The notes beneath the pieces are model-generated. The model had not been told where the DNA came from and did not search any database. It saw only the letters and a program-made list of their open reading frames with translations. The position numbers and the translations under genes were made by a program. A stretch of DNA of 64,000 bases from a virus: IMG/VR virus record IMGVR_UViG_3300003663_000013. One strand, given 5' to 3'. Shown piece after piece: positions 1 through 54,577 of this stretch (the first letter of the stretch is position 1; every line of letters starts with the position of its first letter).

Positions 1-1
1 T

Positions 2-718
2 GATACTGAATTTTCTAAAGTATTAAGAGATCAAAGCAATTATCCAGTTAAAATAAATTTCCCAGGTTCTTTGATTAATACAGGAGATTATCAGGTCATA
101 AGTGTGTTGAGCGATACTTCTGCTATAATTGCTGGGGATTTAACGGGTGAGAATAACTTAGATTATAAAGTTATAGGTAGTTTTACTCCAGGTATTTCAC
201 CTTCTGGTAGTGATAGATTCCCTTATTTCTATGATAGTTGCAGTATTGATTTAGTAGAAGAGACAGTAGTAGATACGCCACCGGCAAAAACAAGTGGAAC
301 AGAGTTTTATATTGCAAGAGTAAGAAACACAGGAGCAGCTTTAGCAGATATTCAAGACAAGAGAACAGAGTTTTTTACAGCAGCAGGAGAAAATGGTGGA
401 TGGATAGAACCTAGTTTGAATGCTAACTTTACACAAGTTGCAGGTCGTGAGATAGAATATAGAAAGAATTATATAGGTGAAGTAGAAATAAGAGGTGCTT
501 TTACGACTACCTTAACTACAGGAACAATATTTACATTACCTGAAGGCTACAGACCTATAAATACAGAAGTGGGTATTTATACAACACATGATTTTGATGG
601 ATTGAAAACACTGATAGTGGATTCAGATGGTAATGTAAGTTCAGGAGCTACTACAGGTAATGATTACGACACTTCTAATGCAAATATTATAGTTAATATA
701 AAATTCAAAACTTCTTAA
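2..718 (+). CDS. structural protein, tail-fibre-like C-terminal part (5' end outside window)
   Basis: The reading frame stays open from the window edge through the listed TTG at 71. Composition is G/T/S/N-rich. It sits at the end of an operon that stops before the promoter-like gap at 1255-1372. Confidence 0.45.
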   Translation, partial: DTEFSKVLRDQSNYPVKINFPGSLINTGDYQVISVLSDTSAIIAGDLTGENNLDYKVIGSFTPGISPSGSDRFPYFYDSCSIDLVEETVVDTPPAKTSGTEFYIARVRNTGAALADIQDKRTEFFTAAGENGGWIEPSLNANFTQVAGREIEYRKNYIGEVEIRGAFTTTLTTGTIFTLPEGYRPINTEVGIYTTHDFDGLKTLIVDSDGNVSSGATTGNDYDTSNANIIVNIKFKTS

Positions 719-720
719 TT

Positions 721-1254
721 ATGTTAAAATTTTATTATACAAATATAAGTGAGAATGGAGGAATTCAAACTCGTTCAGATTTAAGTTTAGGAGGGTATAA
801 GAGTGCAACAGCAGTTCCTAATGATAGTGTGGGTAATTTATTTAGTGATATTTCAGTATATTCAGTAAGAGAAAATAGAGATGAGTATATTGCATTAACT
901 CTAGTAAATGAAACAGGAGCAGAAGTAACAGATGTGACTTTGTATTTTGATTATCCTGAAAATAGGCAAAAAGATATAGAATTAGCATTTGTTAATTTTA
1001 ATGCAAGTGATGAGATTGAGATTATTCCTAATTCATATTCTAAGCCTTTTAATGCTGTTTTTAATGCAGCAGATGGAGTGAATAATGCACTAAATATAGG
1101 TACACTTGCAGCAGGAGCAAAAATAGGTGTTTGGTTTAAAAAAGTGTTAAATATAAACAATATAAAATTACCATATAGCGATTTATCATTAGAAACTAAT
1201 GGTAATCCATTAATAGAAACAGAAGATATCTCTTTGATTGTCAGTTGGACATAG
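721..1254 (+). CDS. hypothetical protein (probably structural)
   Basis: 177-aa ORF whose ATG lies 3 nt after the previous stop. No recognisable motif. Confidence 0.5.
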   Translation: MLKFYYTNISENGGIQTRSDLSLGGYKSATAVPNDSVGNLFSDISVYSVRENRDEYIALTLVNETGAEVTDVTLYFDYPENRQKDIELAFVNFNASDEIEIIPNSYSKPFNAVFNAADGVNNALNIGTLAAGAKIGVWFKKVLNINNIKLPYSDLSLETNGNPLIETEDISLIVSWT

Positions 1255-1317
1255 TTTTTGGGATTTATTTCTTTTTTAGTTTGGAGAAGGGTAAAATGAA
1301 ATATTTTTGACTTTCTT

Positions 1318-1348
1318 TTTGTTTATTAAAATATATTTTATATATTTA
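1318..1348 (+). promoter_or_regulatory. Bacteroidetes-type promoter (TTTG -33, TATATTTA -7)
   Basis: TTTG at 1318-1321 and TATATTTA at 1341-1348 with a 19-nt spacer. Member of a recurrent box family seen at 16095, 36769, 38511, 41644, 51980 and 59307. Confidence 0.5.
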
Positions 1349-1372
1349 TATTGTAAAAATAAGTGGCAATAG

Positions 1373-1903
1373 ATGAAACAACAAATATACAATCTACTTT
1401 GCAAGTACTATGAAAAGATATACCAAAAAGTATTAAAACGTGGAGACTTTGTATTTATCCCTACTAAAAGAGAAAAAGTACAGATAAGTAATTTTGTAGA
1501 CTTTTTAGATGAAGAAATAGGAATAAATTCAATAGGAGAAGATTGGATATTTAATTATACTATTTATATATTTAAACAAAGAAAAGAACAAAAGACAAGA
1601 TATAAGAATCACATTCCAGTAAATTGGATATATGGTAAGAAGTCATATGAATTATATCAAAAAAGACATGAGAAGTGGGTTTATTTCAACGATAAGTTTA
1701 TAAGTGAATATAATATAAGGAAACCAAACTTAGAGGAGCAAATGGAGTTAAACACAGAAGAGTATTATGAGAAATTACGTAAACAATACTATGATCAAGA
1801 ATTTCCTCTAAGTTGGTGTTTTAATACAGTTGTTTATAACAAAAAGAGTAAATATTGTTTGAGGTGTAAAAGTAAAATGGATTGTAAGATATTGAATAAA
1901 TAA
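1373..1903 (+). CDS. hypothetical protein with C-terminal Cys cluster
   Basis: 176-aa ORF downstream of the promoter-like box. C-terminus reads CLRCKSKMDC. Confidence 0.5.
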   Translation: MKQQIYNLLCKYYEKIYQKVLKRGDFVFIPTKREKVQISNFVDFLDEEIGINSIGEDWIFNYTIYIFKQRKEQKTRYKNHIPVNWIYGKKSYELYQKRHEKWVYFNDKFISEYNIRKPNLEEQMELNTEEYYEKLRKQYYDQEFPLSWCFNTVVYNKKSKYCLRCKSKMDCKILNK

Positions 1904-1928
1904 GGAAGGTTGAGGGTGAAACAATTAT

Positions 1929-1975
1929 CTTTAACGATTGCAGATATGCCCAGTTTGGGATTAAATAGTAAAAAC
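1929..1975 (+). repeat. attC-like site, short type (homologous to 3243-3291)
   Basis: Reads CTTTAAC-GATTGC-...CCCAgtttGGG...ATTAAATAGTAAAAAC and aligns with 3243-3291. The small stem covaries between the copies (CCCA/TGGG versus CCGC/GCGG). Confidence 0.4.
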
Positions 1976-1992
1976 TTTAAATTATAGATAAA

Positions 1993-2295
1993 ATGAATAA
2001 AAATGTAGAAACTTCAAATGAAACACAGATACCCAAATTGGGTATATCTGATGTTATGCACTGTGATTATCAGCAAAAACTTTTTCACGAAATTGTTGGT
2101 ATGAAACACAGAATGCAAGGATTGGCTGGATTTGTCCAAAACGATTTTGATAAAATGTTGGAAGATGGTACAACCACTAAAGATGGAATTAAAGAAGCAA
2201 TTGAAGATATGGACAAATCGTTTGATAAAGTGATAAACGAAATGAATATACTTCGTGAAAAATGTAGAGTGATAATGTCTTATCATTGCGCCTAA
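1993..2295 (+). CDS. hypothetical cassette protein
   Basis: 100-aa ORF. Its TAA stop (2293-2295) lies inside GCCTAAC (2290-2296). Confidence 0.5.
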   Translation: MNKNVETSNETQIPKLGISDVMHCDYQQKLFHEIVGMKHRMQGLAGFVQNDFDKMLEDGTTTKDGIKEAIEDMDKSFDKVINEMNILREKCRVIMSYHCA

Positions 2296-2579
2296 CGGAC
2301 GAGTGTATGAATAGTAAAATTACGGATATGGAAAAAGTATATGAATTTTGGTATAACGACTGCATTTACGAAAGTGCGGCTGCTTGTATGAGTTTGCACA
2401 GAACACGCAAGGGTGCAGAAATGGCAATGGAATTTCACAAAGAGCAGAAACGTAAGGAGTTTGAAGAACTCTACAAAGATGAGGATGATATTGACTGGAC
2501 TTTTGATAGTATGAGTGCGTGGGGTGTTTCTGAAAGGGAAGTAGTTGAGTAATTTTATTATTTATACACATTGTTGTGG
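2290..2579 (+). repeat. attC-like site whose 20-bp stem encloses a whole ORF
   Basis: Layout is GCCTAAC (2290-2296), a 6-nt spacer GGACGA, the 5' arm at 2303-2322, the 3' arm at 2550-2569, ATT, then GTTGTGG (2573-2579). The 5' arm pairs with the 3' arm over 20 bp, including 2 G-T wobbles. Confidence 0.55.
2307..2552 (+). CDS. hypothetical protein (start and stop codons both inside the long stem)
   Basis: ATG at 2307 is the likely true start of track ORF 2286..2552. 81 aa with an acidic C-terminus. Confidence 0.5.
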   Translation: MNSKITDMEKVYEFWYNDCIYESAAACMSLHRTRKGAEMAMEFHKEQKRKEFEELYKDEDDIDWTFDSMSAWGVSEREVVE

Positions 2580-2603
2580 TGGCGAAGCGAACGTTTTAAT
2601 GCA

Positions 2604-2726
2604 CCACAACGGTTGGGTGTATGAGCAGTAGCCGAACACAAAACTTGATTAGAAGTAGAAACTTAAATATTAACAACTGCAATAGTTTAAACGCCTAACA
2701 GCTATTGCTTATACACTTTGTTAGGC
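2604..2726 (+). repeat. attC-like site (123 bp), ORF-less cassette
   Basis: Layout is CCACAAC (2604-2610), a 6-nt spacer, a 16-bp stem (2617-2632 with 2701-2716), TTT, then GTTAGGC (2720-2726). Homologous and equal in length to 54217-54339. Confidence 0.6.
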
Positions 2727-2735
2727 AACGTTTTT

Positions 2736-2972
2736 ATGAAAATAGCAATGATACCAGCAGATAATAATGGCAATATACTTTGGCTAAAAGAACTAAGGAC
2801 TGAAAATAGCAGGGCATTTATAAAATACAAAAGCACTTATAACGATATGCCATTTGCCGAAACTGAAATATTTGCAGTTGATGGCGGGAAAAACTTTGTA
2901 ATTACAGGCGACGACGGAACTATACTATACCGATTTTCGGCAAATTGGTTGGTTGGATTAAATGTTGCCTAA
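2736..2972 (+). CDS. hypothetical cassette protein
   Basis: ATG at 2736 is in frame with track ORF 2718..2972. The stop TAA (2970-2972) lies inside GCCTAAC (2967-2973). Confidence 0.5.
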   Translation: MKIAMIPADNNGNILWLKELRTENSRAFIKYKSTYNDMPFAETEIFAVDGGKNFVITGDDGTILYRFSANWLVGLNVA

Positions 2973-2998
2973 CGTTAAAATATAAAAAATCGTTGCGA
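2967..2998 (+). repeat. attC-like site, minimal or degenerate (32 bp)
   Basis: GCCTAAC, 18 nt, then GTTGCGA. The inverse core is the exact complement of the previous core GTTAGGC (2720-2726). Confidence 0.4.
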
Positions 2999-3000
2999 TT

Positions 3001-3249
3001 ATGAATGAGGAACTATTTGGAGAATTACACGAAGAAGAACAATATGGCTTGTTTGGTCAAGAACATCACAAGCAATGTTTTTTATATAGTGTTAGCGACC
3101 GTACTTCACCTAATAATAGGCTAAAAATAGAGCCTGTGTTTGATGGAATAAGTACAGCCGTTTCACAATATAAGGTAACTGACGACTTAGGTAGTATATG
3201 GATGGTAGGAACAAGAGAAGAATGCGATGCGTATTTGTATGGTCGCTAA
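3001..3249 (+). CDS. hypothetical cassette protein
   Basis: 82-aa ORF. AATCGTTGCGATT (2988-3000) upstream pairs with GGTCGCTAACGATT (3241-3254), which contains the stop codon. Confidence 0.5.
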   Translation: MNEELFGELHEEEQYGLFGQEHHKQCFLYSVSDRTSPNNRLKIEPVFDGISTAVSQYKVTDDLGSIWMVGTREECDAYLYGR

Positions 3250-3291
3250 CGATTGAGTGTAACCGCATGTAGCGGATTAAATAGTAATAAC
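3243..3291 (+). repeat. attC-like site, short type, core site not identifiable
   Basis: Layout is TCGC(T)AAC, a 6-nt spacer GATTGA, GTGTAACCGC-atgta-GCGGATTA, ending TAATAAC. Homologous to 1929-1975. Confidence 0.4.
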
Positions 3292-3309
3292 TTATCAAAA
3301 TAAACGAAT

Positions 3310-3564
3310 ATGAACAAAGAGCAGAATACTTCGCAAACCACAGAATCCGCTATTGCGGTTGACACTGTGTTAGCAACTGGGCTTTATTGTATTAAAGTTC
3401 AAGCTAATCATGATTGTTGGATTGCCGATTGGAATGGTGACCCTGGAAGAACATTAGTAAAAGAAAACGCAAAAACATTTAAACGTAAATCGGATGCTGA
3501 AAAGTTATGCAACGAAATGAAGATAAAATATCCAAATCGAAATGTTTGGGCCGATGTCTTTTAG
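3310..3564 (+). CDS. hypothetical cassette protein
   Basis: 84-aa ORF followed 7 nt later by TGCTAAC (3571-3577). Confidence 0.5.
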   Translation: MNKEQNTSQTTESAIAVDTVLATGLYCIKVQANHDCWIADWNGDPGRTLVKENAKTFKRKSDAEKLCNEMKIKYPNRNVWADVF

Positions 3565-3570
3565 CCTTGT

Positions 3571-3640
3571 TGCTAACGTTTTGAATATGTGGCGGCTTGT
3601 GTTGCGCCTGCGGCAAGCTGACATATATTTGTTGTTACCA
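3571..3640 (+). repeat. attC-like site
   Basis: Layout is TGCTAAC, a spacer, the stem ATATGT-GGC-GGCTTG / CAAGCT-G-ACATAT (3585-3626), then GTTACCA (3634-3640). The loop CGCCTGC can also pair with GCAGGCG at 3654-3660. Confidence 0.5.
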
Positions 3641-3711
3641 ACTGGCGGTTTATGCAGGCGTTGATTAAATGAACAGAAGTAATAATTAAATATTTTTTAG
3701 GGAGGGTTTTT

Positions 3712-4182
3712 ATGATTTTAAAACACAAAAGAGACAAGTTGCTTCAAGATATTTCAAGTGATTTGCATTTGGGTAGAATATCCGCAAAAGAAGCAATTGA
3801 AGAAGCTAATCTCTTAAATCAAACAACAATGCAAATAACGAAAGCATACAATGTGCAAATATGGGTAGGATTACAAGAAACCTACGATAAAGAAAAATTG
3901 CATACAATTAATGAAGTTGAAACCATTTGCCAAGATTTTGTAAATGAAGTTAAAGATTGTGTAACTGTAACACCAACAAAGTTTAAATATGTGAATGGGG
4001 GTGAAAACGGAGCTGTTATCGGCTGGATTAGTTATCCAAGATTTCCAAGAAAACGAAAAGAAATAAGAAAACGTGCTTTGGCTCTTGCAGAAAAATTAAT
4101 GAATGAATTAAACCAGTACCGAGTAACGGTAACAACGCCACTTAAAAGCTATATGCTTGAAAATAAAAACGTAGAACGATGA
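3712..4182 (+). CDS. hypothetical protein (first gene of a two-gene cassette)
   Basis: 156-aa ORF preceded by a strong SD-like GGGAGGG 5 nt upstream of the ATG. This is atypical for the rest of the genome. Confidence 0.55.
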   Translation: MILKHKRDKLLQDISSDLHLGRISAKEAIEEANLLNQTTMQITKAYNVQIWVGLQETYDKEKLHTINEVETICQDFVNEVKDCVTVTPTKFKYVNGGENGAVIGWISYPRFPRKRKEIRKRALALAEKLMNELNQYRVTVTTPLKSYMLENKNVER

Positions 4183-4973
4183 GCAAAGAAGACAAAGCAA
4201 TTAAATTTATAAGAACCATAGCAGCCAACACAAACAAGCCTTTATATGCAGGTAATAGTGGCGGTAAAGACAGTGCTGTAGTTGATAAGCTATTGCAGCT
4301 TAGCGGTATTGAATACCAAAGCTACTACACAAACACCACTGTTGACCCCAAAGGTACAATAAAGCATATTAGAGAGCATTACCCGCATACTGAAATACTA
4401 CACCCAAAAGAAAGCTTTTACCAACTTGTAGAGCGCAAGGGATTACCGACACGACTAAGTAGATATTGTTGTGAAGACCTGAAAGAGTATGCTTCTGTAG
4501 GAAAAATGGTGTTTGAAGGTGTGAGGAGTGCAGAAAGCAGAAAGCGACAAGGTAGAGACTACGTGCAATGCGATAATAGAAAATGGCAAAAAGGAGCGCA
4601 ACACATTTACCCGATTTACGATTGGAGTGATGAAGATGTTTATAGCTTTATTGAAAAGCACAATATTAAACTTGCACCACATTACAAATATGCAGATAGG
4701 CTTGGGTGTGTTGGTTGCCCTTTAGTAAGCAGAAAAGGACATAGAGAAAAAGAGTTTGCTATTTACCCGAAATATAGAAATGCTATAAAAAGAGCTATAA
4801 CTAAAGGAATGGCAAACAACCCACAATGGAAACTTAGTTGTGCAACTGATGGAGATGGAGAAAAAGCAATGCTATGGTGGTTGAGTGGTAAGACAATGAA
4901 CGAGTTCTTTAAACCTTACAGTTTTGAAAAAACTGAGGCGGGGTGGCAAAAATATTTAATTACGGACAAGTAA
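4179..4973 (+). CDS. PAPS-reductase-family PP-loop ATP pyrophosphatase
   Basis: N-terminal PP-loop motif NSGGKDSAVV. Length and Cys pattern are typical of phage PAPS-reductase-like proteins. The start overlaps the previous stop (ATGA). Confidence 0.65.
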   Translation: MSKEDKAIKFIRTIAANTNKPLYAGNSGGKDSAVVDKLLQLSGIEYQSYYTNTTVDPKGTIKHIREHYPHTEILHPKESFYQLVERKGLPTRLSRYCCEDLKEYASVGKMVFEGVRSAESRKRQGRDYVQCDNRKWQKGAQHIYPIYDWSDEDVYSFIEKHNIKLAPHYKYADRLGCVGCPLVSRKGHREKEFAIYPKYRNAIKRAITKGMANNPQWKLSCATDGDGEKAMLWWLSGKTMNEFFKPYSFEKTEAGWQKYLITDK

Positions 4974-5014
4974 GTACTGACCTTGATTAAATGCACTGCC
5001 TTTCTTCCGCTTGT

Positions 5015-5109
5015 TGGTAACGGACGAGTGTATGGCAAGTAAGCCACGCACGAACCTTGATATTAACCACAGAATTTGATTGGCTTATTTGCTATACACA
5101 TTGTTATGC
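5015..5109 (+). repeat. attC-like site (95 bp)
   Basis: Layout is TGGTAAC (5015-5021, the complement of GTTACCA at 3634), a 6-nt spacer GGACGA, an 18-bp stem (5028-5045 with 5082-5099), ATT, then GTTATGC (5103-5109). Confidence 0.6.
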
Positions 5110-5251
5110 AAAGTGCCTTAAAATATTGTTATGAATTATGCAGGTTTACTCAGTAATAAGGTCTGTAAGTATCGAAGATAACAGGTTCGCACTGAAAACA
5201 ATTGAAAAAGCAAAGAGAATCTGGGAGCAGACGAAGCCTTTCCTGCATTTT

Positions 5252-5349
5252 GCATAACGGGCCGGTTACATGTTGTCGAAAGCCAACCACAACCGACCGA
5301 TTCAGCGCACCGCCTTTGCATGGCTTTTGCAATATGTAACTTGTTACAA
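5252..5349 (+). repeat. attC-like site (98 bp)
   Basis: GCATAAC (5252-5258) is the complement of GTTATGC at 5103. A 6-nt spacer follows, then an interrupted stem: 5265-5275 with 5330-5340, and 5279-5285 with 5321-5327. It ends TT, then GTTACAA (5343-5349). Confidence 0.6.
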
Positions 5350-5443
5350 ATCTGGTGCGGGAAACACCACAAAAGCTGATTAAATGAGCGAACGTAAAAA
5401 AAGAAAAAAAAGGGAGGGCTTTTGAAATTATTTTATCTTAATA

Positions 5444-5475
5444 TTTGGATATTAAATATATTATCCGTATATTTG
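5444..5475 (+). promoter_or_regulatory. Bacteroidetes-type promoter
   Basis: TTTG at 5444-5447 and a perfect TAnnTTTG (TATATTTG) at 5468-5475 with a 20-nt spacer. It is embedded in a 12-bp direct repeat ATATTTGGATAT (5441-5452 and 5469-5480). Confidence 0.5.
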
Positions 5476-5491
5476 GATATAAATTAGAATA

Positions 5492-5725
5492 ATGAAACAG
5501 ATGAAAGCATATAGATTATACAAAGGATTCAACAAAATAGGAGAATTTGATTCTATTTTAGAGGCTAAAAAGAATGCGCCTAAAGAAGATGGGATTTATA
5601 ATTTGAAAGGCGAAAATTACAGAGATAGTTGGCAAATCATTAATGGAACTTATTATGGCGAACGAAACTTGGGAATACAGATTGCAGAAATCTGTGAGAT
5701 GGGATTCAGAAGATGCAATAGATGA
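5492..5725 (+). CDS. hypothetical protein
   Basis: 77-aa ORF downstream of the promoter-like box. It overlaps the next ORF in another frame. Confidence 0.45.
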   Translation: MKQMKAYRLYKGFNKIGEFDSILEAKKNAPKEDGIYNLKGENYRDSWQIINGTYYGERNLGIQIAEICEMGFRRCNR

Positions 5726-5933
5726 TGTGATTTATTTTATACAAAACGAATTTATAAACGAATGGTGTTTAACATCTGATGAAATGCCAACAATAGGGCA
5801 AAGATGCTGGTGTGTAAATGATAAAAATGATTTGTATTTGTGTATTTACTCTAAATTTTCAGTATTCCGAAAAAAACCAACCTTTAATAATATGCTTGGA
5901 AAGGGATGGGAAGTTCAGAGCGTAGTTAAGTAG
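5643..5933 (+). CDS. hypothetical protein (true start may be the ATG at 5655)
   Basis: 96-aa ORF with balanced composition. It overlaps 5492..5725. Confidence 0.45.
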   Translation: MELIMANETWEYRLQKSVRWDSEDAIDDVIYFIQNEFINEWCLTSDEMPTIGQRCWCVNDKNDLYLCIYSKFSVFRKKPTFNNMLGKGWEVQSVVK

Positions 5934-5956
5934 AAGCCGCTAAAAACACCTGAATT

Positions 5957-6127
5957 ATGATTGAGTGGTTACAAAAAAACAAGGAATTTCTTTCCATACG
6001 TGGAATTGAAAAGCATTTAGGAATGCCGGATTCAACTTTAATAAAAGCTGTAAACGGAGTTCAAAACTTACCTGAGAAATGGAAACAATCTTTGGAAGAT
6101 TTCATAAAGGTTTTGCAAAAACCTTAG
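5957..6127 (+). CDS. small helix-turn-helix-like protein
   Basis: 56-aa ORF not in the track (translated by eye). The segment LSIRGIEKHLGMPDSTLIKAVNG looks like an HTH. Confidence 0.35.
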   Translation: MIEWLQKNKEFLSIRGIEKHLGMPDSTLIKAVNGVQNLPEKWKQSLEDFIKVLQKP

Positions 6128-6239
6128 TGCGCGGGCTTTTTTCTTTTTTGGTCAAGTTGCACCGACCTATCATTTAAAAACTGTCGCAGCACTTGTTTGT
6201 AACTACTATATATCAAATTATCAATTTAATTTATTGATT

Positions 6240-6559
6240 ATGAATAAATTTGCAGAGTCAACTTTAAGAAAATATGAAAAATATCTTAAAGTTAAAAATT
6301 ACTCAGATAGAACTATTGATTTAATGGTCAAAATTCTTTACAATATAGCACTACAAGTTGTAATAAATTAGTCAAAAAATATCTTGGAGAACAATATCAT
6401 TTCCATTTACTTAGACACGCTGCATTTACTCATTTAACAGATCAAGGAGTAGATATTAGAGCAATTCAAAAACTTGCTGGACATAAATCAAGTAGGACTA
6501 CTGAAATCTATACTCAAGTAAGTACACAAGTTTTACATAAATTACCCTTGGCACTATAG
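6240..6559 (+). pseudogene. tyrosine recombinase (integrase) remnant with internal deletion and frame change
   Basis: The N-terminal fragment (6240-6371) encodes a SAM-like domain start, ESTLRKYEKYLKVKNYSDRTI. A second frame (6320-6559) encodes the C-terminal catalytic region HLLRHAAFTHLTDQGVDIRAIQKLAGHKSSRTTEIYTQ. The roughly 200-aa core between them is missing. Confidence 0.75.
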
Positions 6560-6569
6560 TAACTATAAA

Positions 6570-7151
6570 ATGAAGATATTTAAACCACATAAAGGAATTT
6601 GTATTGATTGTGATCAAGAAAAATGGATAGTAAATAGTAAAGGTCAGTGTGAAGAATGTAGATATAAGCAGAATCATGATGGAAAAACTAAATTAGAAGT
6701 ACAAATAGAGAAAGAAAAGAGTAAACCTAAGAAAACCTACCAGTTAAAAAGAACACCGTTAAAAAGGTCTAAAAAGACATTTAAACGAAGTTTTATAAAA
6801 CAAAGTAAAGAATCAAAAGAAAAAAGAGACGAAGTACTAAAAAAAGATAGAGAAACTTACTTGGAAGTATTTAATACAACCCCTAATGAATGTGAAGAAT
6901 GCAGATTAAATGGAATACATACTCCCTTACCAGATCAATTCGAAGATGAAGAAGGGAATATTATTGGTGTGTGGCAGTATTCACATATATTGGCTAAATC
7001 AAGTTTTCCTGAATATAGACATAAAGTAAAAAATTTTAATCGTTTGTGCAGGGAACATCACGATATATATGAATTCGGAGACAGAGAAAGTATGAAAATA
7101 TATAAACCAAATCAAATAATAATACAAAAACTAAAAAATGGAGAATTATGA
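6570..7151 (+). CDS. Zn-ribbon / HNH-like nuclease-fold protein
   Basis: Carries CxxC...CxxC pairs and a C-terminal HIL...N...LCREHH motif. The exact family is uncertain. Confidence 0.4.
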   Translation: MKIFKPHKGICIDCDQEKWIVNSKGQCEECRYKQNHDGKTKLEVQIEKEKSKPKKTYQLKRTPLKRSKKTFKRSFIKQSKESKEKRDEVLKKDRETYLEVFNTTPNECEECRLNGIHTPLPDQFEDEEGNIIGVWQYSHILAKSSFPEYRHKVKNFNRLCREHHDIYEFGDRESMKIYKPNQIIIQKLKNGEL

Positions 7152-7433
7152 AAGCAACATTAGAAAGTAGAATAGAGCAATTAGAAGAAAGAGTATTGGA
7201 ATTAGAAAATAAAAAATCAATTAAACCATTAGTTGTTATTAAGGTTCCTATTAATTTATCAATTAAAGAAGTCTAATACAATACTGATATTTTAAAAAAA
7301 GAAATGACAGATTATCACATACTTGTAGTTCAAGATAATGTTGATTATCCAAAATTTGAAGTATTTTGTGAAGACAACTTGAATAAATTAAATAAAGAAG
7401 AATTCGATAATTTATTAAAAAACAACCTTAAAA

Positions 7434-7970
7434 ATGAAAAATAGAGAAATTAAATTTAAAGCATTCATCCCAGAATTAAATATAATCTTAGACGATGTTA
7501 CTATATATGGTAATGGTCAAATGGGAATAGGAGTAGATGAATTAGAAGAAAGTCTTCCTAAAGGATATCAATTATATGAAGATATTATTTATTTTATTGA
7601 TGAAGAAAAAGATATATTTGATAGAGTAATGAGTATACTTCCAGGAGAAGATTGGGTTTGGTTTGAAGAAAATCAATTCACACCTTTACAATACACAGGA
7701 AAGAAATCAATAAAAGGGAATGAATTATATGAAAACGATATTGTGTTTGAAGAAATTCCTACAGAGTATGGAGATAGAAGAATATTTTTTATTGTAAAAT
7801 GGATTGAAGAATTAGCAGTATTTACATTTCTTCACTATCACGAGTTTATGGAATATGAAGATAATGGAATTAAAGCATTAGATGATTGTGAGTATTATGA
7901 CTTAAGTGGTTCAGAAAAAATGCATTATAAAGGCAATTATTTATTGAATCCAGATATTTTTGAAATTTAA
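7434..7970 (+). CDS. YopX-family protein
   Basis: The N-terminal REIKFKAF motif is typical of YopX. Paralogue of 55582..56025. Confidence 0.5.
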   Translation: MKNREIKFKAFIPELNIILDDVTIYGNGQMGIGVDELEESLPKGYQLYEDIIYFIDEEKDIFDRVMSILPGEDWVWFEENQFTPLQYTGKKSIKGNELYENDIVFEEIPTEYGDRRIFFIVKWIEELAVFTFLHYHEFMEYEDNGIKALDDCEYYDLSGSEKMHYKGNYLLNPDIFEI

Positions 7971-8033
7971 CAGTAATATATTTTTAATATTAATATATAT
8001 TTTATATTTTTAATCAGATACAAATTTAGATAC

Positions 8034-8579
8034 ATGAATAAATACGAAATAATTTATGCAGACCCACCTTGGAGTTATAATGAAAAGACTGATTGTGGTG
8101 GTAAAATAGGAGAATATAATTCTCACGTTTCTGACAATTACAATATAATGTCTTTTAATGATATATATAATTTACCCATTAAAGATATAAGTGATGACAA
8201 TTGTTTGTTGTTTTTATGGGTTACTTCTCCAAATTTAAAAGAAGGGATTAAGACAGGAGAGTCTTGGGGATTTAAATATAAAACAGTTGCATTTGTATGG
8301 CATAAAGTATTGTTATTACCTGGGAATTACACTATGCCTTCTGTAGAACTATGTCTTATTTTTAAAAAAGGTAAAATTCCTACTCCAAGAGGTCTGAGGA
8401 ATGTTAGGCAGTTTTTAGAAGAAAAAAGAACGAGGCACAGTAAAAAGCCTGATGAGATAAGGAATCGAATTAAACAAATGTTCCCACATCAAAATAAAAT
8501 TGAATTATTTGCTCGTGAGAAATATGATGGATGGGATGCATGGGGAAATGAAGTTAAAAGCGATATTAATTTATTTTAA
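8034..8579 (+). CDS. MT-A70-family N6-adenine DNA methyltransferase
   Basis: IIYADPPWSY catalytic DPPW motif near the N-terminus, with a size typical of phage MT-A70 enzymes. Confidence 0.75.
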   Translation: MNKYEIIYADPPWSYNEKTDCGGKIGEYNSHVSDNYNIMSFNDIYNLPIKDISDDNCLLFLWVTSPNLKEGIKTGESWGFKYKTVAFVWHKVLLLPGNYTMPSVELCLIFKKGKIPTPRGLRNVRQFLEEKRTRHSKKPDEIRNRIKQMFPHQNKIELFAREKYDGWDAWGNEVKSDINLF

Positions 8580-8586
8580 TTTATAT

Positions 8587-9093
8587 ATGAATAAATACTT
8601 AAAGAGTGCATTAGAAAGGTATAAATCAAAAGAAGAATTTAAGATTCATCCTATAAGTAAAGTTGATGCAGAAATAGTATGGGAATTAATGATAGCATTA
8701 GGTAAATTAGGTATAAATGATTTAAAAGATATATTAGATAATTACAAATATTGGAAAGATTCAGAAGTAAGAGATTTACTACTACAATGGAATATAGATC
8801 ATCCAGAAGGATTAATAGAAGAAACAACAGGAGGAAGTGAAAAGAAGAAGATAAGAAAATTCATGAAATTTGATGAGAATTTAGCAGACGTATGGATAAT
8901 AAAAACAGTAGATATACAAGACAGATATAATCACGTAAAGAATGAAATGGAGTATAATATAATACTAAACAAAGATTTTGCAGAGGGATTCCCAACAAAG
9001 AAATACACATATAAAACACCAGAGGTAAGAAAAGAGAAGTTAGACATACTTGAGTCTATTCTCAGTGATGACATAGAAATAATCGGTAAGTAA
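8587..9093 (+). CDS. hypothetical protein
   Basis: The in-frame ATG at 8587 just after the previous stop is more plausible than the track start at 8500. Confidence 0.5.
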   Translation: MNKYLKSALERYKSKEEFKIHPISKVDAEIVWELMIALGKLGINDLKDILDNYKYWKDSEVRDLLLQWNIDHPEGLIEETTGGSEKKKIRKFMKFDENLADVWIIKTVDIQDRYNHVKNEMEYNIILNKDFAEGFPTKKYTYKTPEVRKEKLDILESILSDDIEIIGK

Positions 9094-52392: not shown

Positions 52393-52623
52393 ATGGCAAA
52401 TACAAATGATTACGGAGGACAAGGATTAAATAGAGGTAGTTCTTTTCATATAAAAAAGCCACTTGGTGAAGGTGTGGTTTGGGGTGCGAAGGCTAAAAAA
52501 TGGCTTGTACGAATAAAAAAGAATGGAATAATATGCACAATGGGAGGATACACAGATAAGCAAATAGCAGAAAGACAATATGCCATTTGTGTGGTGGGTA
52601 AATGCACTACAACGGTACGGTAA
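52393..52623 (+). CDS. AP2-domain DNA-binding protein
   Basis: GVVWGAKAKKWLVRIKKNGIICTMGGYTDKQIAERQY fits the AP2/integrase DNA-binding domain pattern. Confidence 0.55.
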   Translation: MANTNDYGGQGLNRGSSFHIKKPLGEGVVWGAKAKKWLVRIKKNGIICTMGGYTDKQIAERQYAICVVGKCTTTVR

Positions 52624-52660
52624 TATGATTAGTTGCCATACTACGAACTTTGAAATTTAG

Positions 52661-52700
52661 TAATAACTTGACAGGCAATTAATTATATTGCTTGTTGTAA
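52661..52700 (+). repeat. attC-like site, short type
   Basis: Layout is TAATAAC, a 6-nt spacer, the stem GGCAAT / ATTGCT, then GTTGTAA (52694-52700). Confidence 0.4.
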
Positions 52701-52734
52701 AATCGTTAAATTATTATGGCAAAAAAAAGAAAAA

Positions 52735-52956
52735 ATGTTTATAGGAGATGATTGCCCAAATTGTGGATGTGGTTTAATTGTAACCACTACATGTGGGGAG
52801 GAAAATGATACAGAATTTGAACAATACTATTATGATGGTGATGAAGTTAGATGCGAAAACAATTGTGGATTTTTATCTACAGTGAGTATAAATGAAGATG
52901 GTGCATGTGCTTATATAGCAGATGGCAACTTAGATGAATTGGAGGAGTGCGAATAA
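52735..52956 (+). CDS. Cys-rich acidic small protein (cassette ORF)
   Basis: 73-aa ORF with CPNCGC...C...C...C. Confidence 0.5.
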   Translation: MFIGDDCPNCGCGLIVTTTCGEENDTEFEQYYYDGDEVRCENNCGFLSTVSINEDGACAYIADGNLDELEECE

Positions 52957-52965
52957 TTTTATGTT

Positions 52966-53098
52966 TTACAACGTATGGTGGTATGGTGTTGTAGCGGATT
53001 AGAAAGCACGAACATATCGAACTGTACGGAAGTAAATAGAAAGTAATGAACTTTGAATTAAACACAAAACCCGCTATGCATTATACCACGTGTTATCG
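52966..53098 (+). repeat. attC-like site (133 bp)
   Basis: TTACAAC (52966-52972) is the complement of GTTGTAA at 52694. A 5-nt spacer follows, then a 19-bp stem (52978-52997 with 53071-53089, one bulge), then GTTATCG (53092-53098). Confidence 0.55.
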
Positions 53099-53248
53099 GC
53101 TGATGTGGTTTAATTGCCTGAATTTCAATACGAACCACAAAACAGTTTTTATTTTTTTAGGGTAGGAAGAAAAATAATTGAAAAATGTTTTGGTTGTTTG
53201 AAACAAAAGTATTGCCTTTGACGTATAAATTAATAAAACGAATGAATT

Positions 53249-53692
53249 ATGAAAACATTTAAACTTCCATTTAGCGAAACCGAAATTGATGTAAATAACG
53301 AAGGTGTTATTACAAGAGTAAACGGATTTGACTTTATTTGTAACATTCTTGAAATGAAATTGTCTGAATATAGGTTGATGGACTTAGACAATAAAGGTTC
53401 ACATATGTTCCCATATTGGTTAGATATGTTCATTCAAGAAATAGGAACATCACTACCTGAAAATAATGATGATTTTGAAAAAATTGTTAGAACAAATTGG
53501 GAACAATGGAATACCGATGATGTTTTAATTGGTACTCAATTAGACCATTATCAATTTGGTGATGAACACATGGCACATGATATGAAAGATTATTATGGTG
53601 AATTACGTGCTAATGGTGATTTATTTCAAAGGAGATGGGATTTTGCTATTGCAGATATTGAAGTAAGAATTAAAAGTGAGCAATATGTCTAA
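53249..53692 (+). CDS. hypothetical protein
   Basis: 147-aa ORF with balanced composition. Confidence 0.55.
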   Translation: MKTFKLPFSETEIDVNNEGVITRVNGFDFICNILEMKLSEYRLMDLDNKGSHMFPYWLDMFIQEIGTSLPENNDDFEKIVRTNWEQWNTDDVLIGTQLDHYQFGDEHMAHDMKDYYGELRANGDLFQRRWDFAIADIEVRIKSEQYV

Positions 53693-53840
53693 GCGAATAT
53701 CACTAAAACTGACTGACGAGAATGATTGGTTGGTTGATAAACTAAACGAAGAAAAAGAAAAACAAAATAGACCAAGTTTTAATAATATGGCAGAGACTAT
53801 TTTGGTTGAGTATTTTGAAGAGCGTGGGCAAAAACAATGA
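53685..53840 (+). CDS. ribbon-helix-helix (CopG/Arc-like) DNA-binding protein
   Basis: 51-aa ORF (translated by eye). MSKRISLKLTDENDWLVDKL...NMAETILVEYF fits a beta-strand plus two helices. Confidence 0.45.
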   Translation: MSKRISLKLTDENDWLVDKLNEEKEKQNRPSFNNMAETILVEYFEERGQKQ

Positions 53841-54145
53841 TTATGATACTTAGTTTTGAAATTACAATGCCTAATGTCGGTAGCTGGAATGGCAAATGGA
53901 CTGGTGCTGAAAACCTTCACTTTGCTTTTAGAAATATGTCTAAAAAAGAAGTTGAAACTTTTATGGAAGGTAAGGAGCATAAGAATTTTTACTACAACTT
54001 TGGCGATGGTTGGGGAGCAAACGTTAAAGTAAAACCAATAGATGCCAAAACAAAAAATAAGATTCAGCGTAAAAATTCTGGATTTATGGGCTATGATTGG
54101 ATGATTGATAGCATATTTGAACACGGAAAGATTATTGTTGAGTGA
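53837..54145 (+). CDS. hypothetical protein flanked by 15-bp direct repeats
   Basis: 102-aa ORF. GAGCGTGGGCAAAAA occurs at 53820-53834 and again at 54144-54158. Confidence 0.55.
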   Translation: MIMILSFEITMPNVGSWNGKWTGAENLHFAFRNMSKKEVETFMEGKEHKNFYYNFGDGWGANVKVKPIDAKTKNKIQRKNSGFMGYDWMIDSIFEHGKIIVE

Positions 54146-54168
54146 GCGTGGGCAAAAAGTTCATACGA

Positions 54169-54202
54169 GCTACAGCGCATTATTTATATAATGAGTTGTA
54201 GC
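54169..54202 (+). repeat. attC-like site, minimal hairpin
   Basis: GCTACAGC, 18 nt, then GTTGTAGC, giving an 8-bp stem with one G-T pair. Confidence 0.4.
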
Positions 54203-54216
54203 ATCGTTTAAATGTG

Positions 54217-54339
54217 CTACAACGTTAAGTATATGGCAAGTAGCCGAACACGAATGATGAACAAAGATATAAATATTAATAACCAGCAGATAGTTTCTAA
54301 AACGCCTAACACGGCTATTTGCTATATACATTGTTAGGC
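54217..54339 (+). repeat. attC-like site (123 bp), ORF-less cassette, homologue of 2604-2726
   Basis: CTACAAC (54217-54223) is the complement of GTTGTAG at 54195. A 5-nt spacer follows, then an 18-bp stem (54229-54246 with 54312-54329), ATT, then GTTAGGC (54333-54339). Confidence 0.6.
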
Positions 54340-54349
54340 ACAGTTAATT

Positions 54350-54556
54350 ATGGCTTATACAAAAAATTACACAGAAAAATTTAAAGTTGGTGACAAAGTT
54401 AAGTTAACCAAGAAAGTTGATTCAATGGCTGGATATTTCCCAAAAGGGGATATAGTTGAAATATGTGATATTGACGACACGAGAGGATACGGTTTTAAAG
54501 ACGAACATGGTAACAGAGTGATAGAATGTGGATGGGATTGCTGCACTTCTATTTAA
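54350..54556 (+). CDS. hypothetical cassette protein
   Basis: 68-aa ORF bracketed by GTTAGGCACA (54333-54342) and TGTGCCTAAC (54558-54567). Confidence 0.5.
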   Translation: MAYTKNYTEKFKVGDKVKLTKKVDSMAGYFPKGDIVEICDIDDTRGYGFKDEHGNRVIECGWDCCTSI

Positions 54557-54560
54557 TTGT

Positions 54561-54577
54561 GCCTAACTACTATATAT
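54561..54577 (+). repeat. terminal inverse-core plus junction GCCTAAC-TACTATATAT
   Basis: Same junction as TTGTAAC-TACTATATAT at 6197-6213. Followed by a roughly 45-nt relic of the recombinase gene start (ATG at 54600, TCAACTTTAAGAA at 54622-54634). Confidence 0.5.

Follow-up and report, generated by a model that had tools for sequence, protein, structure and literature searches.

Related cassette systems

Bacterial integrons accumulate gene cassettes at a primary site that lies beside a gene for a tyrosine recombinase of the Xer/IntI branch. Their sites are imperfect palindromes with outer AAC/GTT boxes, inner stem boxes and an unpaired spacer, and they fold asymmetrically with respect to strand. 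The cassette ends are complementary, as befits a circular intermediate cut in AAC/GTT, and most cassette genes have no known function. Each of these traits has a counterpart in the locus described here. In the pdif, or Xer-site, modules of Acinetobacter plasmids, genes lie between inverted 28-bp double-stranded dif-like sites and are swapped among replicons by Xer-type tyrosine recombinases, the host XerC/XerD. The PeSL mobile regulatory cassettes of T4-type phages, reportedly described by Arbiol et al. in 2010, consist of an early promoter and a stem-loop, and homologous recombination is thought responsible for their movement. We know of no dedicated recombinase, attI or complementary cassette ends in PeSLs.

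Clusters of attC-like sites were reported in phages by Qi et al. 2023 (PMC9892861), who used HattCI and IntegronFinder, so the statement in the initial annotation that cassette arrays are not established in phages is outdated. Their set includes two sites of Polaribacter phage P12002L, which they treated as bacterial integron components and for which no dedicated recombinase or attI was reported; our covariance model finds at least four sites in this phage. P12002L_attC1 (TGCTAAC-GGCTAC-stem-ATT-GTTAGGC) shares the architecture of the sites described below, and methyltransferase cassettes are a further likeness. IntI1 did not recombine P12002L_attC1, the single tested site of this architecture (Qi et al. 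2023, PMC9892861); this failure is what a dedicated recombinase would lead one to expect, although it does not in itself demonstrate one.

The window analysed here is a 64,000-nt stretch of a marine Bacteroidota-type phage genome (IMG/VR record IMGVR_UViG_3300003663_000013). Judging from its sequence, the region at 1929–6213 is very probably an array of eight mobile gene cassettes, part of an integron-like site-specific recombination system of Bacteroidota phages. This system appears widespread in phages of the group, and only pieces of it have been recognized to date; the literature searched contained no description of it as a whole.

The array departs from the known systems in several ways. 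Unlike the phage CALINs of Qi et al., which are attC clusters that lack an integrase, the present sites belong to a large family that has a recombinase and an attI-like site of its own, and the gene orientation is reversed. Relative to bacterial integrons, where genes point away from the integrase gene, the genes here run toward it and are co-directional with it, can start inside or lie wholly in the site loops, and are carried by a phage. AAC and GTT are all that is retained of the outer boxes RYYYAAC/GTTRRRY, an asymmetric spacer (5–6 and 2–3 nt) together with invariant G·T pairs replaces the two extrahelical bases, and the outer stem spans ∼3–5 bp when integrated and a predicted 8–10 bp on excision. 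The recombinase is shorter and lacks the IntI-specific insertion. pdif modules likewise place genes between inverted sites for a Xer-type enzyme, but have neither hairpin sites nor long co-oriented arrays beside a dedicated recombinase gene. PeSLs resemble the array in that accessory genes of hyperplastic phage regions lie between stem-loop repeats and are exchanged, with circles proposed; the present arrays differ in their dedicated recombinase, attI-like site and complementary cassette ends.

Hairpin sites of the array

The island has a G+C content of 35–38%, compared with 24–30% in its flanks and 23–33% for the window as a whole, which bears out an earlier impression. It is accessory, since two distant relatives (L003 and L004) lack it and have their homologues of ORF 1373 and ORF 6570 directly joined. 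All 13 outer 7-mers listed in the initial annotation are present at the coordinates given there. Of the integron core consensus to which they had been assigned (RYYYAAC/GTTRRRY), the invariant part is confined to the triplets AAC and GTT, and most sites misfit the remainder (e.g., CCACAAC, TGGTAAC, TTGTAAC). Three stop codons (2293–2295, 2970–2972 and 3247–3249), which terminate ORFs 1993–2295, 2718/2736–2972 and 3001–3249, fall inside nnnTAAC, as had been noticed.

The GTTnnnn end of one site pairs with the nnnnAAC start of the following site. This neighbour complementarity, the central claim of the initial annotation, holds more strongly than claimed there, at seven of eight consecutive junctions once two of its pairs are corrected. 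The pair GTTGCGA 2992/TCGC(T)AAC 3243 is imperfect and spurious, and two true perfect pairs had been overlooked (GTTAGCG 3091/CGCTAAC 3244 and GTTAGCA 3369/TGCTAAC 3571). With a further site at its upstream end (site i), the corrected chain is unbroken and contains eight hairpin sites, with perfectly complementary runs of 8–10 nt at seven junctions and one mismatch at the eighth (GTTATGC 2053/GCCTAAC 2290). The island contains seven GTT...AAC inverted repeats that are 9 nt or longer and whose arms lie within 1.5 kb, against 0.54 ± 0.75 in 1000 shuffles, none of which reached seven. A covariance model trained solely on the sites of other contigs recovers six island sites at E <0.1, all on the + strand. 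The same rule was examined at 125 independent sites from viral contigs, 117 of which have enough downstream sequence for the complement test. In 96 of these 117, the next 1.5 kb downstream contains a complement of GTTnnnn, against 22.3 ± 4.0 in shuffled sequence, and just 7 of the 125 sites are self-complementary.

Each site comprises the C of the AAC box, a 5–6 nt spacer, a long stem with conserved G·T pairs, a 2–3 nt spacer and GTTnnnn. As proposed, all eight form hairpins (9–21 bp). Most fold better on the + strand than on the other, and site c folds poorly. Compensatory changes affect 13 of 26 stem pairs; the G·T pairs are invariant or nearly so.

All sites lie on the + strand. Site i (1929–2059; CTTTAAC, 5-nt spacer, 19-bp stem, GTTATGC) was found by hairpin search and has a + strand fold of −13.3 kcal/mol (z −2.7) and a covariance model score of 17.5 bits. 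Its loop contains the start of ORF 1993–2295, and it is homologous to site d and to sites in three other contigs (L138, L186 and L112). The 21-bp stem of site a (2290–2579; GCCTAAC-GGACGA-GTGTATG ... TATACAC-ATT-GTTGTGG) wholly encloses ORF 2307–2552. Site b (2604–2726; 123 nt, CCACAAC ... GTTAGGC, 47 bits) belongs to a conserved subfamily, with 84% identity to Cellulophaga phage phi18:3 and 91–94% to many viral contigs. Site c (2967–3097; GCCTAAC ... GTTAGCG) has an 11-bp A/T-rich stem, the weakest fold among the sites, and a loop containing the start of ORF 3001–3249; its end, GTTAGCGACC at 3091, is complementary over 10 nt to GGTCGCTAAC (CGCTAAC core from 3244). Site d (3244–3375; CGCTAAC, long imperfect stem, GTTAGCA; −19.6 kcal/mol, z −2.8) likewise holds the start of an ORF (3310–3564) in its loop, and its end, GTTAGCAAC at 3369, pairs over 9 nt with GTTGCTAAC (TGCTAAC core from 3571). 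Site e (3571–3640; TGCTAAC ... GTTACCA) is compact (70 nt, 27.9 bits), folds at −11.2 kcal/mol on the + strand versus −6.2 kcal/mol on the − strand, and is similar to a site at 440–575 of contig L001. Its end, GTTACCAAC at 3634, is complementary to GTTGGTAAC (TGGTAAC core from 5015). Site f (5015–5109; TGGTAAC-GGACGA-GTGTATG ... TATACAC-ATT-GTTATGC) is canonical (95 nt, 19-bp stem with two G·T pairs, 80 bits, E 1.5e-18), and each of its halves is 98% identical to phage P12002L. Site g (5252–5349; GCATAAC ... GTTACAA) has a 12-bp stem and scores 35 bits.

Cassettes and their genes

A cassette consists of a hairpin site and the DNA downstream of it. Accordingly, among pairs of sites with at least 90% identity, conservation extends to the downstream flank alone in 11 pairs and to the upstream flank alone in 1. 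After the site comes a segment that varies between cassettes and contains one to three genes or their final parts, followed by nnnnAA, which can pair with the GTTnnnn of the same cassette. This agrees with the earlier idea of circular cassettes, in which segments between sites are flanked by complementary ends. The crossover had been placed at G|TT on the + strand; natural breakpoints lie at the nnnnAAC end instead, with one exception given below. Because a cassette is a site plus its downstream segment, all of the initial boundaries (2574–2720, 5104–5343, 2721–2992 and so on) are shifted relative to these breakpoints, and the ‘ORF-less’ and ‘one-gene’ units were wrongly delimited.

Cassette 8 (1935–2295), the furthest from attI, comprises site i and ORF 1993–2295 (100 aa); its limits are AA|C at 1934/1935 and 2295/2296, and it ends with the three bases of a TAA stop codon. 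Cassette 7 (2296–2609) comprises site a, with ORF 2307–2552 in the loop, and a 24-nt segment that together with the flanking repeats makes up a 38-nt hairpin (2573–2610). The 40 nt spanning this hairpin (2572–2611) are 100% identical in Nonlabens phage P12024L, and in contigs L104 and L116 the hairpin adjoins attI. Cassettes 6 (2610–2972; site b, ORF 2736–2972, 78 aa), 5 (2973–3249; site c, ORF 3001–3249, 82 aa) and 4 (3250–3576; site d, ORF 3310–3564, 84 aa) have one gene each. Cassette 3 (3577–5020) joins site e to ORF 3712–4182 (phrog_4848, function unknown) and ORF 4179–4973, a member of the PAPS-reductase family (Pfam PF01507, PHROG 424) that is 76% identical to a gene of contig L099. Cassette 2 (5021–5257) has site f and a 142-nt segment with no convincing gene. 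Cassette 1 (5258–6202), which adjoins attI, contains site g and ORFs 5492–5725, 5643–5933 and 5957–6127; a motif at ∼5430–5480 resembles what we take to be the Bacteroidota promoter consensus (TTTG/TAnnTTTG).

All genes are oriented toward the recombinase gene, and ORFs 1993, 3001 and 3310 start within a site loop and stop at the next TAA|C. The cassettes carry accessory genes, mostly without known relatives, plus the one PAPS-reductase-like gene. DNA methyltransferases are often present on the cassettes of relatives, which suggests an anti-restriction role.

Cassette exchange in related phages

A near-identical contig (L065) carries three cassette segments of the window at 98.6–100% identity, in another order and beside other neighbours. 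The site a segment (2292–2575) is 100% identical to L065 3631–3348, with different neighbours on both sides. Cassette 6 (2608–2974) is 99.5% identical to L065 5671–5305, also among different neighbours, and identity ends at AAC on both sides. Cassette 4 (3233–3578, 98.6%) is joined there directly to the site a of cassette 7. These breakpoints lie at site ends; one exchange breaks at GTT| rather than AAC (site a, 2575), which points either to crossover at both ends or to an added contribution from homologous recombination inside these conserved elements. In Polaribacter phage Freya_1, 2, 6, 8 and 10, the differences are whole cassettes only. All of their breakpoints are at nnnnAAC|, not at G|TT, the crossover position of the initial annotation, and the empty site, TTTACAAC|ACCCCTATAAC, lies immediately upstream of the integrase gene.

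The attI-like end and the recombinase

The array ends on the + strand in an attI-like junction (6197–6213; TTGTAAC|TACTATATAT) complementary to GTTACAAA at 5343, and we infer that new cassettes are inserted here. Of the 15 viral loci examined, 14 have the motif, nnnnAAC plus TAYYATATAT or a close variant, at a distance of 35–70 nt before the start of the recombinase gene; the remaining one, L119, lacks it. At 16 of 16 loci with a recombinase gene, all best-strand covariance model matches share the strand of this gene and lie on its upstream side.

In the window, a remnant of this gene (6240–6556, + strand) follows the junction. It keeps roughly residues 1–27 and 187–267 of a 267-aa family, with ∼160 codons deleted internally and an in-frame TGA at 6317. 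Residues 187–267 share 68% identity with the L065 recombinase (tblastn), the remnant has NCBIfam XerC/XerD/IntI C-terminal matches, and tblastn finds no second copy elsewhere in the window. The gene is a pseudogene in this genome, and the recombinase is Xer-like, not an IntI. The gene is intact in relatives, where it encodes 267–271 aa with a Pfam Phage_integrase domain and a SAM_4 N-terminal domain; the closest matches are XerA and IntI. The protein scores 161 bits, under the 265-bit cut-off of the IntI model, and misses ∼48 residues of VchIntIA, including the IntI-specific insertion. In integrons this insertion contacts the extrahelical bases of folded attC; since the recombinase lacks it, we can only infer that a single-stranded substrate is used. 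The loss of ∼160 internal codons means that the array is probably frozen here, barring supply of the enzyme by a co-infecting relative. Bartlau et al. assumed a role in lysogeny, and the recombinase may serve as a lysogeny integrase in addition to, or in place of, cassette recombination.

Proposed mechanism and alternative explanations

The site statistics, the L065 shuffling, the whole-cassette differences in Freya phages, and the recombinase gene with its attI-like site support an integron-like reading. The core of the initial proposal is thus strongly supported, while its register, strand, consensus and cassette boundaries were wrong. Sequence comparison also strongly supports cassette movement through a circular form by site-specific recombination. 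The recombinase would cut within or beside the AAC of two sites, between A and C by analogy with integrons. In the excised circle, nnnnAAC and GTTnnnn would pair over 8–10 bp and complete the hairpin site, and the circle could then re-insert at attI or another site. We take the folded + strand as the probable substrate because the conserved G·T wobbles occur only on it; it would be the counterpart of the integron ‘bottom strand’.

Alternatively, the sites may be conserved intergenic regulatory or RNA modules of 95–125 nt, with general phage recombination swapping genes between the repeats and no need for a site-specific enzyme dedicated to the task. The same shuffling by homologous recombination has been proposed for the promoter-stem-loop PeSL cassettes of T4-type phages. 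Site interiors at least 90% identical have unrelated flanks in 403 of 416 pairs, which provides ∼100 bp of homology. In addition, the exceptional L065 breakpoint lies at the GTT, the far end of the element, and the conserved G·T pairs would be G·U in mRNA transcribed from the same strand. However, such recombination leaves unexplained the 8–10-nt inverted repeat around each variable segment, the Freya indels that end at AAC beside a non-repeated attI, and the recombinase gene with its adjacent conserved site at the same end of every array. A regulatory role is further opposed by the sites, which show no enrichment of terminator-like or sigma-70-like signals and match no Rfam family. We consider this explanation unlikely.

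Less probable still is a bacterial integron fragment (CALIN) captured from the host chromosome, an origin that Qi et al. 2023 proposed for other phages; any recombination of its cassettes would then fall to a host IntI. Among the phages in which Qi et al. 2023 found attC-like sites is P12002L, which shares the present site family, and arrays of the family also occur in Bacteroidota genome assemblies. Yet we count at least 120 stretches in viral contigs versus 66 in representative genomes of 185,579 species, and Bacteroidetes have almost no canonical integrons (Neron et al. 2022). The failure of IntI1 on the P12002L site, the gene orientation opposite to that of bacterial integrons, and the non-IntI recombinase and attI-like site proper to the system (16/16 loci that include the gene) also oppose this origin.

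That the hairpins are a MITE or other non-autonomous transposon family inserted between genes, beside an unrelated lysogeny integrase with its attP, is highly improbable. Many phage and Bacteroidota genomes do contain multiple copies of these short, highly conserved hairpin elements, and a census found many MITEs shared by Bacteroidota and their viruses (PMC11602168). Against this, direct target-site duplications are absent, the Freya phages gain and lose a site with its gene(s) rather than a bare element, ORFs begin in the element and continue into the variable segment, and the sites follow one another in order and in a single orientation, with complementarity between neighbours, and in every case precede the recombinase gene.

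Finally, chance pairing in an A/T-rich genome rich in GTT and AAC triplets has practically no likelihood: 17% of random GTTnnnn elsewhere in the window have a 7-mer complement within 1.5 kb and a permissive search for hairpins (stems ≥7 bp) stays at noise level (43 versus ∼42 shuffled), but chance is already refuted by the shuffles, the independent contigs (96/117 versus 22) and the independent covariance model, with E down to 1e-18.

The cassette island and its hairpin sites

The window is a low-G+C (~29%) tailed-phage genome that encodes a large terminase, a DnaB-like helicase, a DNA polymerase, a ribonucleotide reductase, an SbcC-like protein and a QueC-like protein. The island at 1929–6213 is richer in G+C, as the initial annotation had noted (35–38% at 1.9–6.2 kb versus 24–30% in the flanks). 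We hold with good confidence that this island is an integron-like site-specific cassette array. The initial annotation had proposed the same class of mechanism, and that part of its reading stands; its register, cassette boundaries and claim of novelty do not. All 13 heptamers that it listed are present at their positions, and each of the three stop codons that it cited terminates a real ORF inside nnnTAAC.

Reading of the sequence and a purpose-built hairpin search identify eight sites in the island, all on the + strand and more regular than first described. From 5′ to 3′, each site consists of nnnnAAC, a 5–6 nt spacer, a 9–21 bp stem, a loop, the returning stem, a 2–3 nt spacer and GTTnnnn. 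The starts of nnnnAAC and GTTnnnn are 1929 and 2053 in site i, 2290 and 2573 in site a, 2604 and 2720 in site b, 2967 and 3091 in site c, 3244 and 3369 in site d, 3571 and 3634 in site e, 5015 and 5103 in site f, and 5252 and 5343 in site g. A terminal TTGTAAC at 6197 has no hairpin downstream. The start codon of the downstream gene lies within the loop of sites i, c and d, and the loop of site a holds a complete 81-codon gene. We dropped a 32-nt version of site c (GCCTAAC...GTTGCGA) for one of 131 nt that ends in GTTAGCG. When stems as short as 7 bp were accepted, the hairpin finder performed at chance level (43 versus ~42 hits), and it was informative only at 9–12 bp or more. A covariance model trained on 19 sites, all from contigs other than the window, scored sites f, b, g, e and i at 80, 47, 35, 28 and 17.5 bits, respectively, each on the + strand.

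Two smaller sequence elements stand out in the island. The octamer GATTAAAT, in many cases with a G after it, is present at six positions in these 4.3 kb (1959, 2956, 3275, 3663, 4985 and 5378) versus seven in the other 60 kb. Copies lie within the loops of sites and close to either end of variable segments; in places they are simply coding sequence ahead of a TAA/C end. A 38-nt hairpin, GTTGTGGTG-GCGAAGCGAACGTTTTAATG-CACCACAAC, lies at 2573–2610. Megablast of window positions 1–9000 against isolated phages gave no close relative, just a 40-nt match; these 40 nt (2572–2611), which span the hairpin, are 100% identical in Nonlabens phage P12024L. A near-identical copy abuts the attI-like site in two other loci (L104 and L116). 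The hairpin resembles a widely travelling element, either a minimal cassette or an ‘empty’ segment between sites.

Complementarity of neighboring site ends

The initial annotation held that GTTnnnn of each site is complementary to nnnnAAC of the next. This neighbor rule applies at seven of the eight junctions, with perfect complementary runs of 8–10 nt (e.g., GTTAGGCAAC/GTTGCCTAAC and GTTAGCGACC/GGTCGCTAAC). One of the listed pairs, the imperfect 2992/3243, is spurious, and the true partners are 3091/3244 and 3369/3571. The island contains seven GTT...AAC inverted repeats of at least 9 nt spaced by up to 1.5 kb, versus 0.54 ± 0.75 in shuffled sequence, and none of 1000 shuffles reached seven.

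On a larger scale, we examined 125 non-redundant sites from viral contigs, among the matches listed, with a detector-free 7-mer test. The complement of GTTnnnn was found within 1.5 kb downstream at 96 of the 117 sites with enough downstream sequence (shuffles, 22.3 ± 4.0; maximum, 35), and that of nnnnAAC upstream at 84 of 122 (20.7 in shuffles). Wrong-direction controls gave 17 and 11, and only 7 of the 125 sites were self-complementary. The complements detected are placed in proper site context. This test replaced a fuzzy search for the ‘next’ site, which yielded 64 perfect matches out of 305 (9 expected) but was noisy and passed over sites of other subfamilies. Complementary ends, which in integrons are the signature of a circular intermediate, are thus present both in the window and in other contigs.

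A Xer-like recombinase and an attI-like site

Downstream of the last nnnnAAC, the window continues with TACTATATAT and then two tyrosine recombinase fragments, which correspond to approximately residues 1–27 and 187–267 of a 267-aa family. About 160 codons are gone and there is an in-frame stop; the gene is a pseudogene. An intact copy is found in a near-identical viral contig (L065), behind TTGTATATAAC joined to TACTATATATAA. Homologues occur in 18 of the 192 fetched loci. We inspected the upstream regions of the 15 viral loci with near-full-length matches, and 14 of them (the exception is L119) carry nnnnAAC/TAYYATATAT or a close variant 35–70 nt ahead of the start codon. The window has this motif at 6197–6213. 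An attI, the primary site that lies by the integrase gene and takes up cassettes, accordingly has a counterpart here. In 16 of 16 loci that include the recombinase gene (15 viral and one from a genome assembly), all best-strand hits of the covariance model are upstream of this gene and share its strand, with up to nine sites in one locus.

The recombinase has the Pfam domains Phage_integrase and SAM_4 (N-terminal). The 267-aa L065 protein scores 175 bits against XerA and 161 bits against the integron-integrase profile TIGR02249, both below the cut-offs (265 for TIGR02249). It aligns end to end with archaeal XerA (PDB 4a8e). Its alignment with VchIntIA (2a3v) falls into two pieces, in which residues 179–214 lie opposite IntI 181–264 and ∼48 residues are absent; we take this skipped stretch to include the IntI-specific insertion. 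On these profile scores and alignments, we class the recombinase as Xer-like, related to IntI but not an IntI. Cultured phages encode homologues at 36–41% identity, namely Cellulophaga phage Ingeline and Polaribacter phages Freya, Leef and Danklef. A candidate cognate enzyme from Cellulophaga phage phi18:3, gp037 (a 428-aa integrase annotated as a tyrosine site-specific recombinase), was rejected, as tblastn with the L065 recombinase missed the phi18:3 loci.

Distribution and fold of the site family

Related sites are found in cultured phages: phi18:3 matches site b at 84% identity, and Polaribacter phage P12002L matches both halves of site f at 98%. In phi18:3, ends that obey the neighbor rule (GTTAGCA ... 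TGCTAAC) bracket a DNA methyltransferase gene. A degenerate pattern for the commonest subfamily matches at least 120 stretches in IMG/VR viral contigs and 66 in representative bacterial genomes, mostly Flavobacteriaceae and other Bacteroidota. P12002L carries at least four family-model sites (1448–1577, 1757–1820, 2603–2664 and 8412–8476 of L192) around methyltransferase and Mom-like genes; the published analysis gave two attC sites. Bacteroidota genome assemblies (L213, L225, L237 and L240) contain arrays of 4–12 sites, in some cases on large contigs or chromosomes attributed to Lutibacter, Winogradskyella and Flaviramulus. Several small MAG contigs with sites carry an assignment to unrelated taxa (Methanolobus, Gammaproteobacteria) and probably represent mis-binned phage DNA.

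RNAalifold analysis of 20 diverse sites yields one long stem of 26 pairs, 13 of which show compensatory changes. AAC and GTT are invariant across the family. Four G.T positions vary little or not at all; two belong to the inner stem, and the other two lengthen the AAC/GTT stem. These positions pair on the + strand only and are A.C mismatches on the opposite strand; most sites fold better on the + strand. The spacers are unpaired and asymmetric (5–6 nt versus 2–3 nt), and we identified no two discrete extrahelical bases of the canonical type.

Cassette units and their movement

L065 shares three stretches of the island with the window in another order and with other neighbors: 2292–2575 (100% identity), 2608–2974 (99.5%) and 3233–3578 (98.6%). 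Identity ends at AAC triplets, with one exception that ends at GTT. The ten Freya isolates (Freya_1 to Freya_10, L259–L268, MT732463–MT732472) were isolated on one host strain and range from 43,978 to 48,920 bp. Among the five compared (Freya_1, 2, 6, 8 and 10), the length differences come down entirely to how many cassettes lie upstream of the integrase. Freya_1 reads TTTACAAC directly followed by ACCCCTATAAC and then the integrase. In Freya_10, a 4.9-kb array of ~12 genes is inserted exactly at this junction and ends in GTTGCTAAC followed by ACCCCTATAAC. Freya_2 retains only the first 889 nt of the Freya_10 array region, Freya_8 lacks one internal unit limited by AAC at each end, and Freya_6 has a private 440-nt unit. 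Whether an isolate has 0, 2 or more cassettes, the array is always joined as AAC/ACCCCTATAAC upstream of the integrase. A similar length series is seen in Danklef_1–5 (47,186–48,177 bp).

The initial annotation expected relatives to differ by whole units broken at G/TT. Whole units are indeed gained and lost, but all Freya breaks fall directly after or within AAC. Linkage was assessed in 416 pairs of sites that are at least 90% identical and come from different loci. In 11 pairs only the downstream flank is conserved, and in one only the upstream flank; the GTT tail is common to 121 pairs and the AAC head to 25. Given the flank linkage and the Freya breakpoints, we rejected + strand G/TT as the crossover. 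Breakpoints, flank linkage, and ORFs that run from a site loop to the next TAA/C together indicate that the mobile unit is a site with the DNA on its downstream side and that crossover is at the AAC end. The boundaries first proposed were therefore shifted in register, and the eight cassettes become 1935–2295, 2296–2609, 2610–2972, 2973–3249, 3250–3576, 3577–5020, 5021–5257 and 5258–6202.

The island itself is accessory: two distant backbone relatives (L003 and L004) join homologues of ORF 1373–1903 and ORF 6570–7151 without it. A peptide-pattern search of viral contigs found no relatives of ORF 1373. ORF 6570–7151, the first backbone gene past the island, encodes a cysteine-rich 193-aa protein with HNH-like motifs that is 44–46% identical to its counterparts in L003 and L004. 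Freya phages likewise have an HNH endonuclease gene after the integrase.

Cassette genes

All cassette ORFs are directed at attI and the integrase. Pfam and PHROGs assign no function to eight of the ten, and the content is mostly genes without known relatives plus one PAPS-reductase-family gene. In relatives, DNA methyltransferases and a Mom-like gene lie at the equivalent positions, so the cassettes may have accessory or anti-restriction roles. Multi-gene cassettes contain the pattern TTTG, ~19 nt, TAnnTTTG (5430–5480 in the window; ~7800 and 6290 (minus strand) in L065). It resembles what we take to be the Bacteroidota housekeeping promoter consensus; if this match holds, some cassettes may bring their own promoter.

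Proposed mechanism and alternative explanations

Alongside the observed anatomy, complementarity rule, breakpoints, and recombinase and attI association, we propose the following route. The recombinase would cut inside the AAC triplets of two sites. The folded + strand is its probable substrate, since the conserved G.T pairs form on that strand alone. A circle would be released in which nnnnAAC and GTTnnnn form an 8–10-bp outer stem that completes the site, and this circle would re-insert at attI. The outer stem of an integrated site would consist of just AAC/GTT and two G.T pairs, such that integrated cassettes may be poorer substrates than excised ones. The recombinase of this phage is dead, and unless another source provides the enzyme in trans, the array has probably stopped changing.

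Exchange by homologous recombination at the conserved sites, in a PeSL-like manner, could contribute and may account for the single GTT breakpoint in L065, yet it leaves the complementary ends, the attI junctions and the recombinase linkage unexplained. It is unlikely that the array is a captured fragment of a bacterial integron: a non-IntI recombinase of their own accompanies the sites, Bacteroidetes (Bacteroidota) almost entirely lack canonical integrons (Neron et al. 2022), and IntI1 failed on the sole family-type site tested (PMC9892861). Three further readings were rejected: a MITE reading conflicts with the whole-cassette Freya differences that end at AAC; terminator hairpins with the single terminator-like site found (2.7 expected), a sigma-70 promoter scan likewise without enrichment, and the lack of any match at E up to 1 in Rfam, which has no attC family; and chance with the shuffle tests and the 96 of 117 sites versus 22.

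Relation to integrons

The accepted view of integrons is that they are bacterial and that IntI defines them. Read on the minus strand of the window, the phage array has the geometry of a canonical integron, with integrase, attI, and cassettes each ending in their own site. The eight island sites also share the attC architecture of imperfect palindromes with boxes and AAC/GTT triplets. However, integron cassettes are promoterless and are read away from a Pc promoter at the integrase/attI end, whereas here the genes run toward the integrase, and the recombinase, ∼48 residues short, lacks the additional domain specific to IntI. Nor do the outer heptamers follow the integron core consensus RYYYAAC/GTTRRRY, as first claimed: only GCCTAAC/GTTAGGC fit, CCACAAC, TGGTAAC, GCATAAC, TTGTAAC, CGCTAAC and TGCTAAC do not, and the four outer bases vary freely. 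The system works like an integron but departs from one in the IntI insertion, the core consensus and gene orientation. A CALIN is a cluster of two or more attC sites, as called by the IntegronFinder attC model, that lacks an intact integron integrase nearby. The window resembles one in that its eight sites are accompanied by just a deleted recombinase gene. Inspection of the island by eye showed no Xer/dif-type sites, the 28-bp double-stranded targets of XerC/XerD (two inverted 11-bp arms with a 6–8-bp spacer).

The initial annotation knew of no phage precedent. This is outdated because Qi et al. 2023 (PMC9892861) described integrons and attC clusters in 21 phages, including a two-site P12002L cluster whose attC1 has exactly the architecture of the island sites; HattCI called a P12002L site of this architecture. 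That study did not describe the dedicated recombinase, the attI, or the site family and its spread. We found no description of the complete phage system in the literature searched, which was that outside subscription journals, and an earlier one is possible.

We lean towards viewing the system as a self-contained integron analogue of Bacteroidota phages, either parallel to integrons or an earlier branch. It would combine a short Xer-like recombinase without the IntI insertion, a private attI, strand-asymmetric folded sites in which conserved G.T pairs replace extrahelical bases, and reversed cassettes. Through it, phages would trade accessory and anti-defense genes (e.g., DNA methyltransferases) fast enough for changes to show among isolates of a single bloom. 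If so, the design of recombinase, folded site and cassette array is not unique to IntI, and hyperplastic small-gene regions in phage genomes gain a concrete mechanism. The pool of mobile phage cassettes would also offer good anti-defense candidates, among them methyltransferases, Mom-like proteins, PAPS-reductase-like proteins and many genes without known relatives. Bartlau et al. 2021 interpreted these integrases as signs that the phages are temperate; integrase genes of flavobacterial phages would not automatically be such evidence. The Freya isolates, of which the five compared differ only in cassettes, provide a cultured system open to direct tests of mechanism.

A second array and other features of the window

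A second, shorter array of the same site family lies at 52607–54577. Its first site (52607–52700) scores 57 bits, and the partner of GTTGTAA at 52694 is TTACAAC at 52966. The site that starts at 52966 ends in GTTATCG at 53092, which is partnerless and breaks the chain. Further on, a mini-hairpin joins GTTGTAG at 54195 to CTACAAC at 54217, and is followed by a site at 54217–54339 and an ORF at 54350–54556. The array ends in GCCTAAC followed by TACTATATAT (54561–54577), the attI-like motif also seen at 6201, with no recombinase gene after it. Elsewhere, ORF 22745–24370 matches QueC-like proteins of the 7-deazaguanine pathway in two stretches, with a weak mid-protein match to the HNH-endonuclease family phrog_7545; it may be a DNA-modification gene with an intein or homing-endonuclease insertion.
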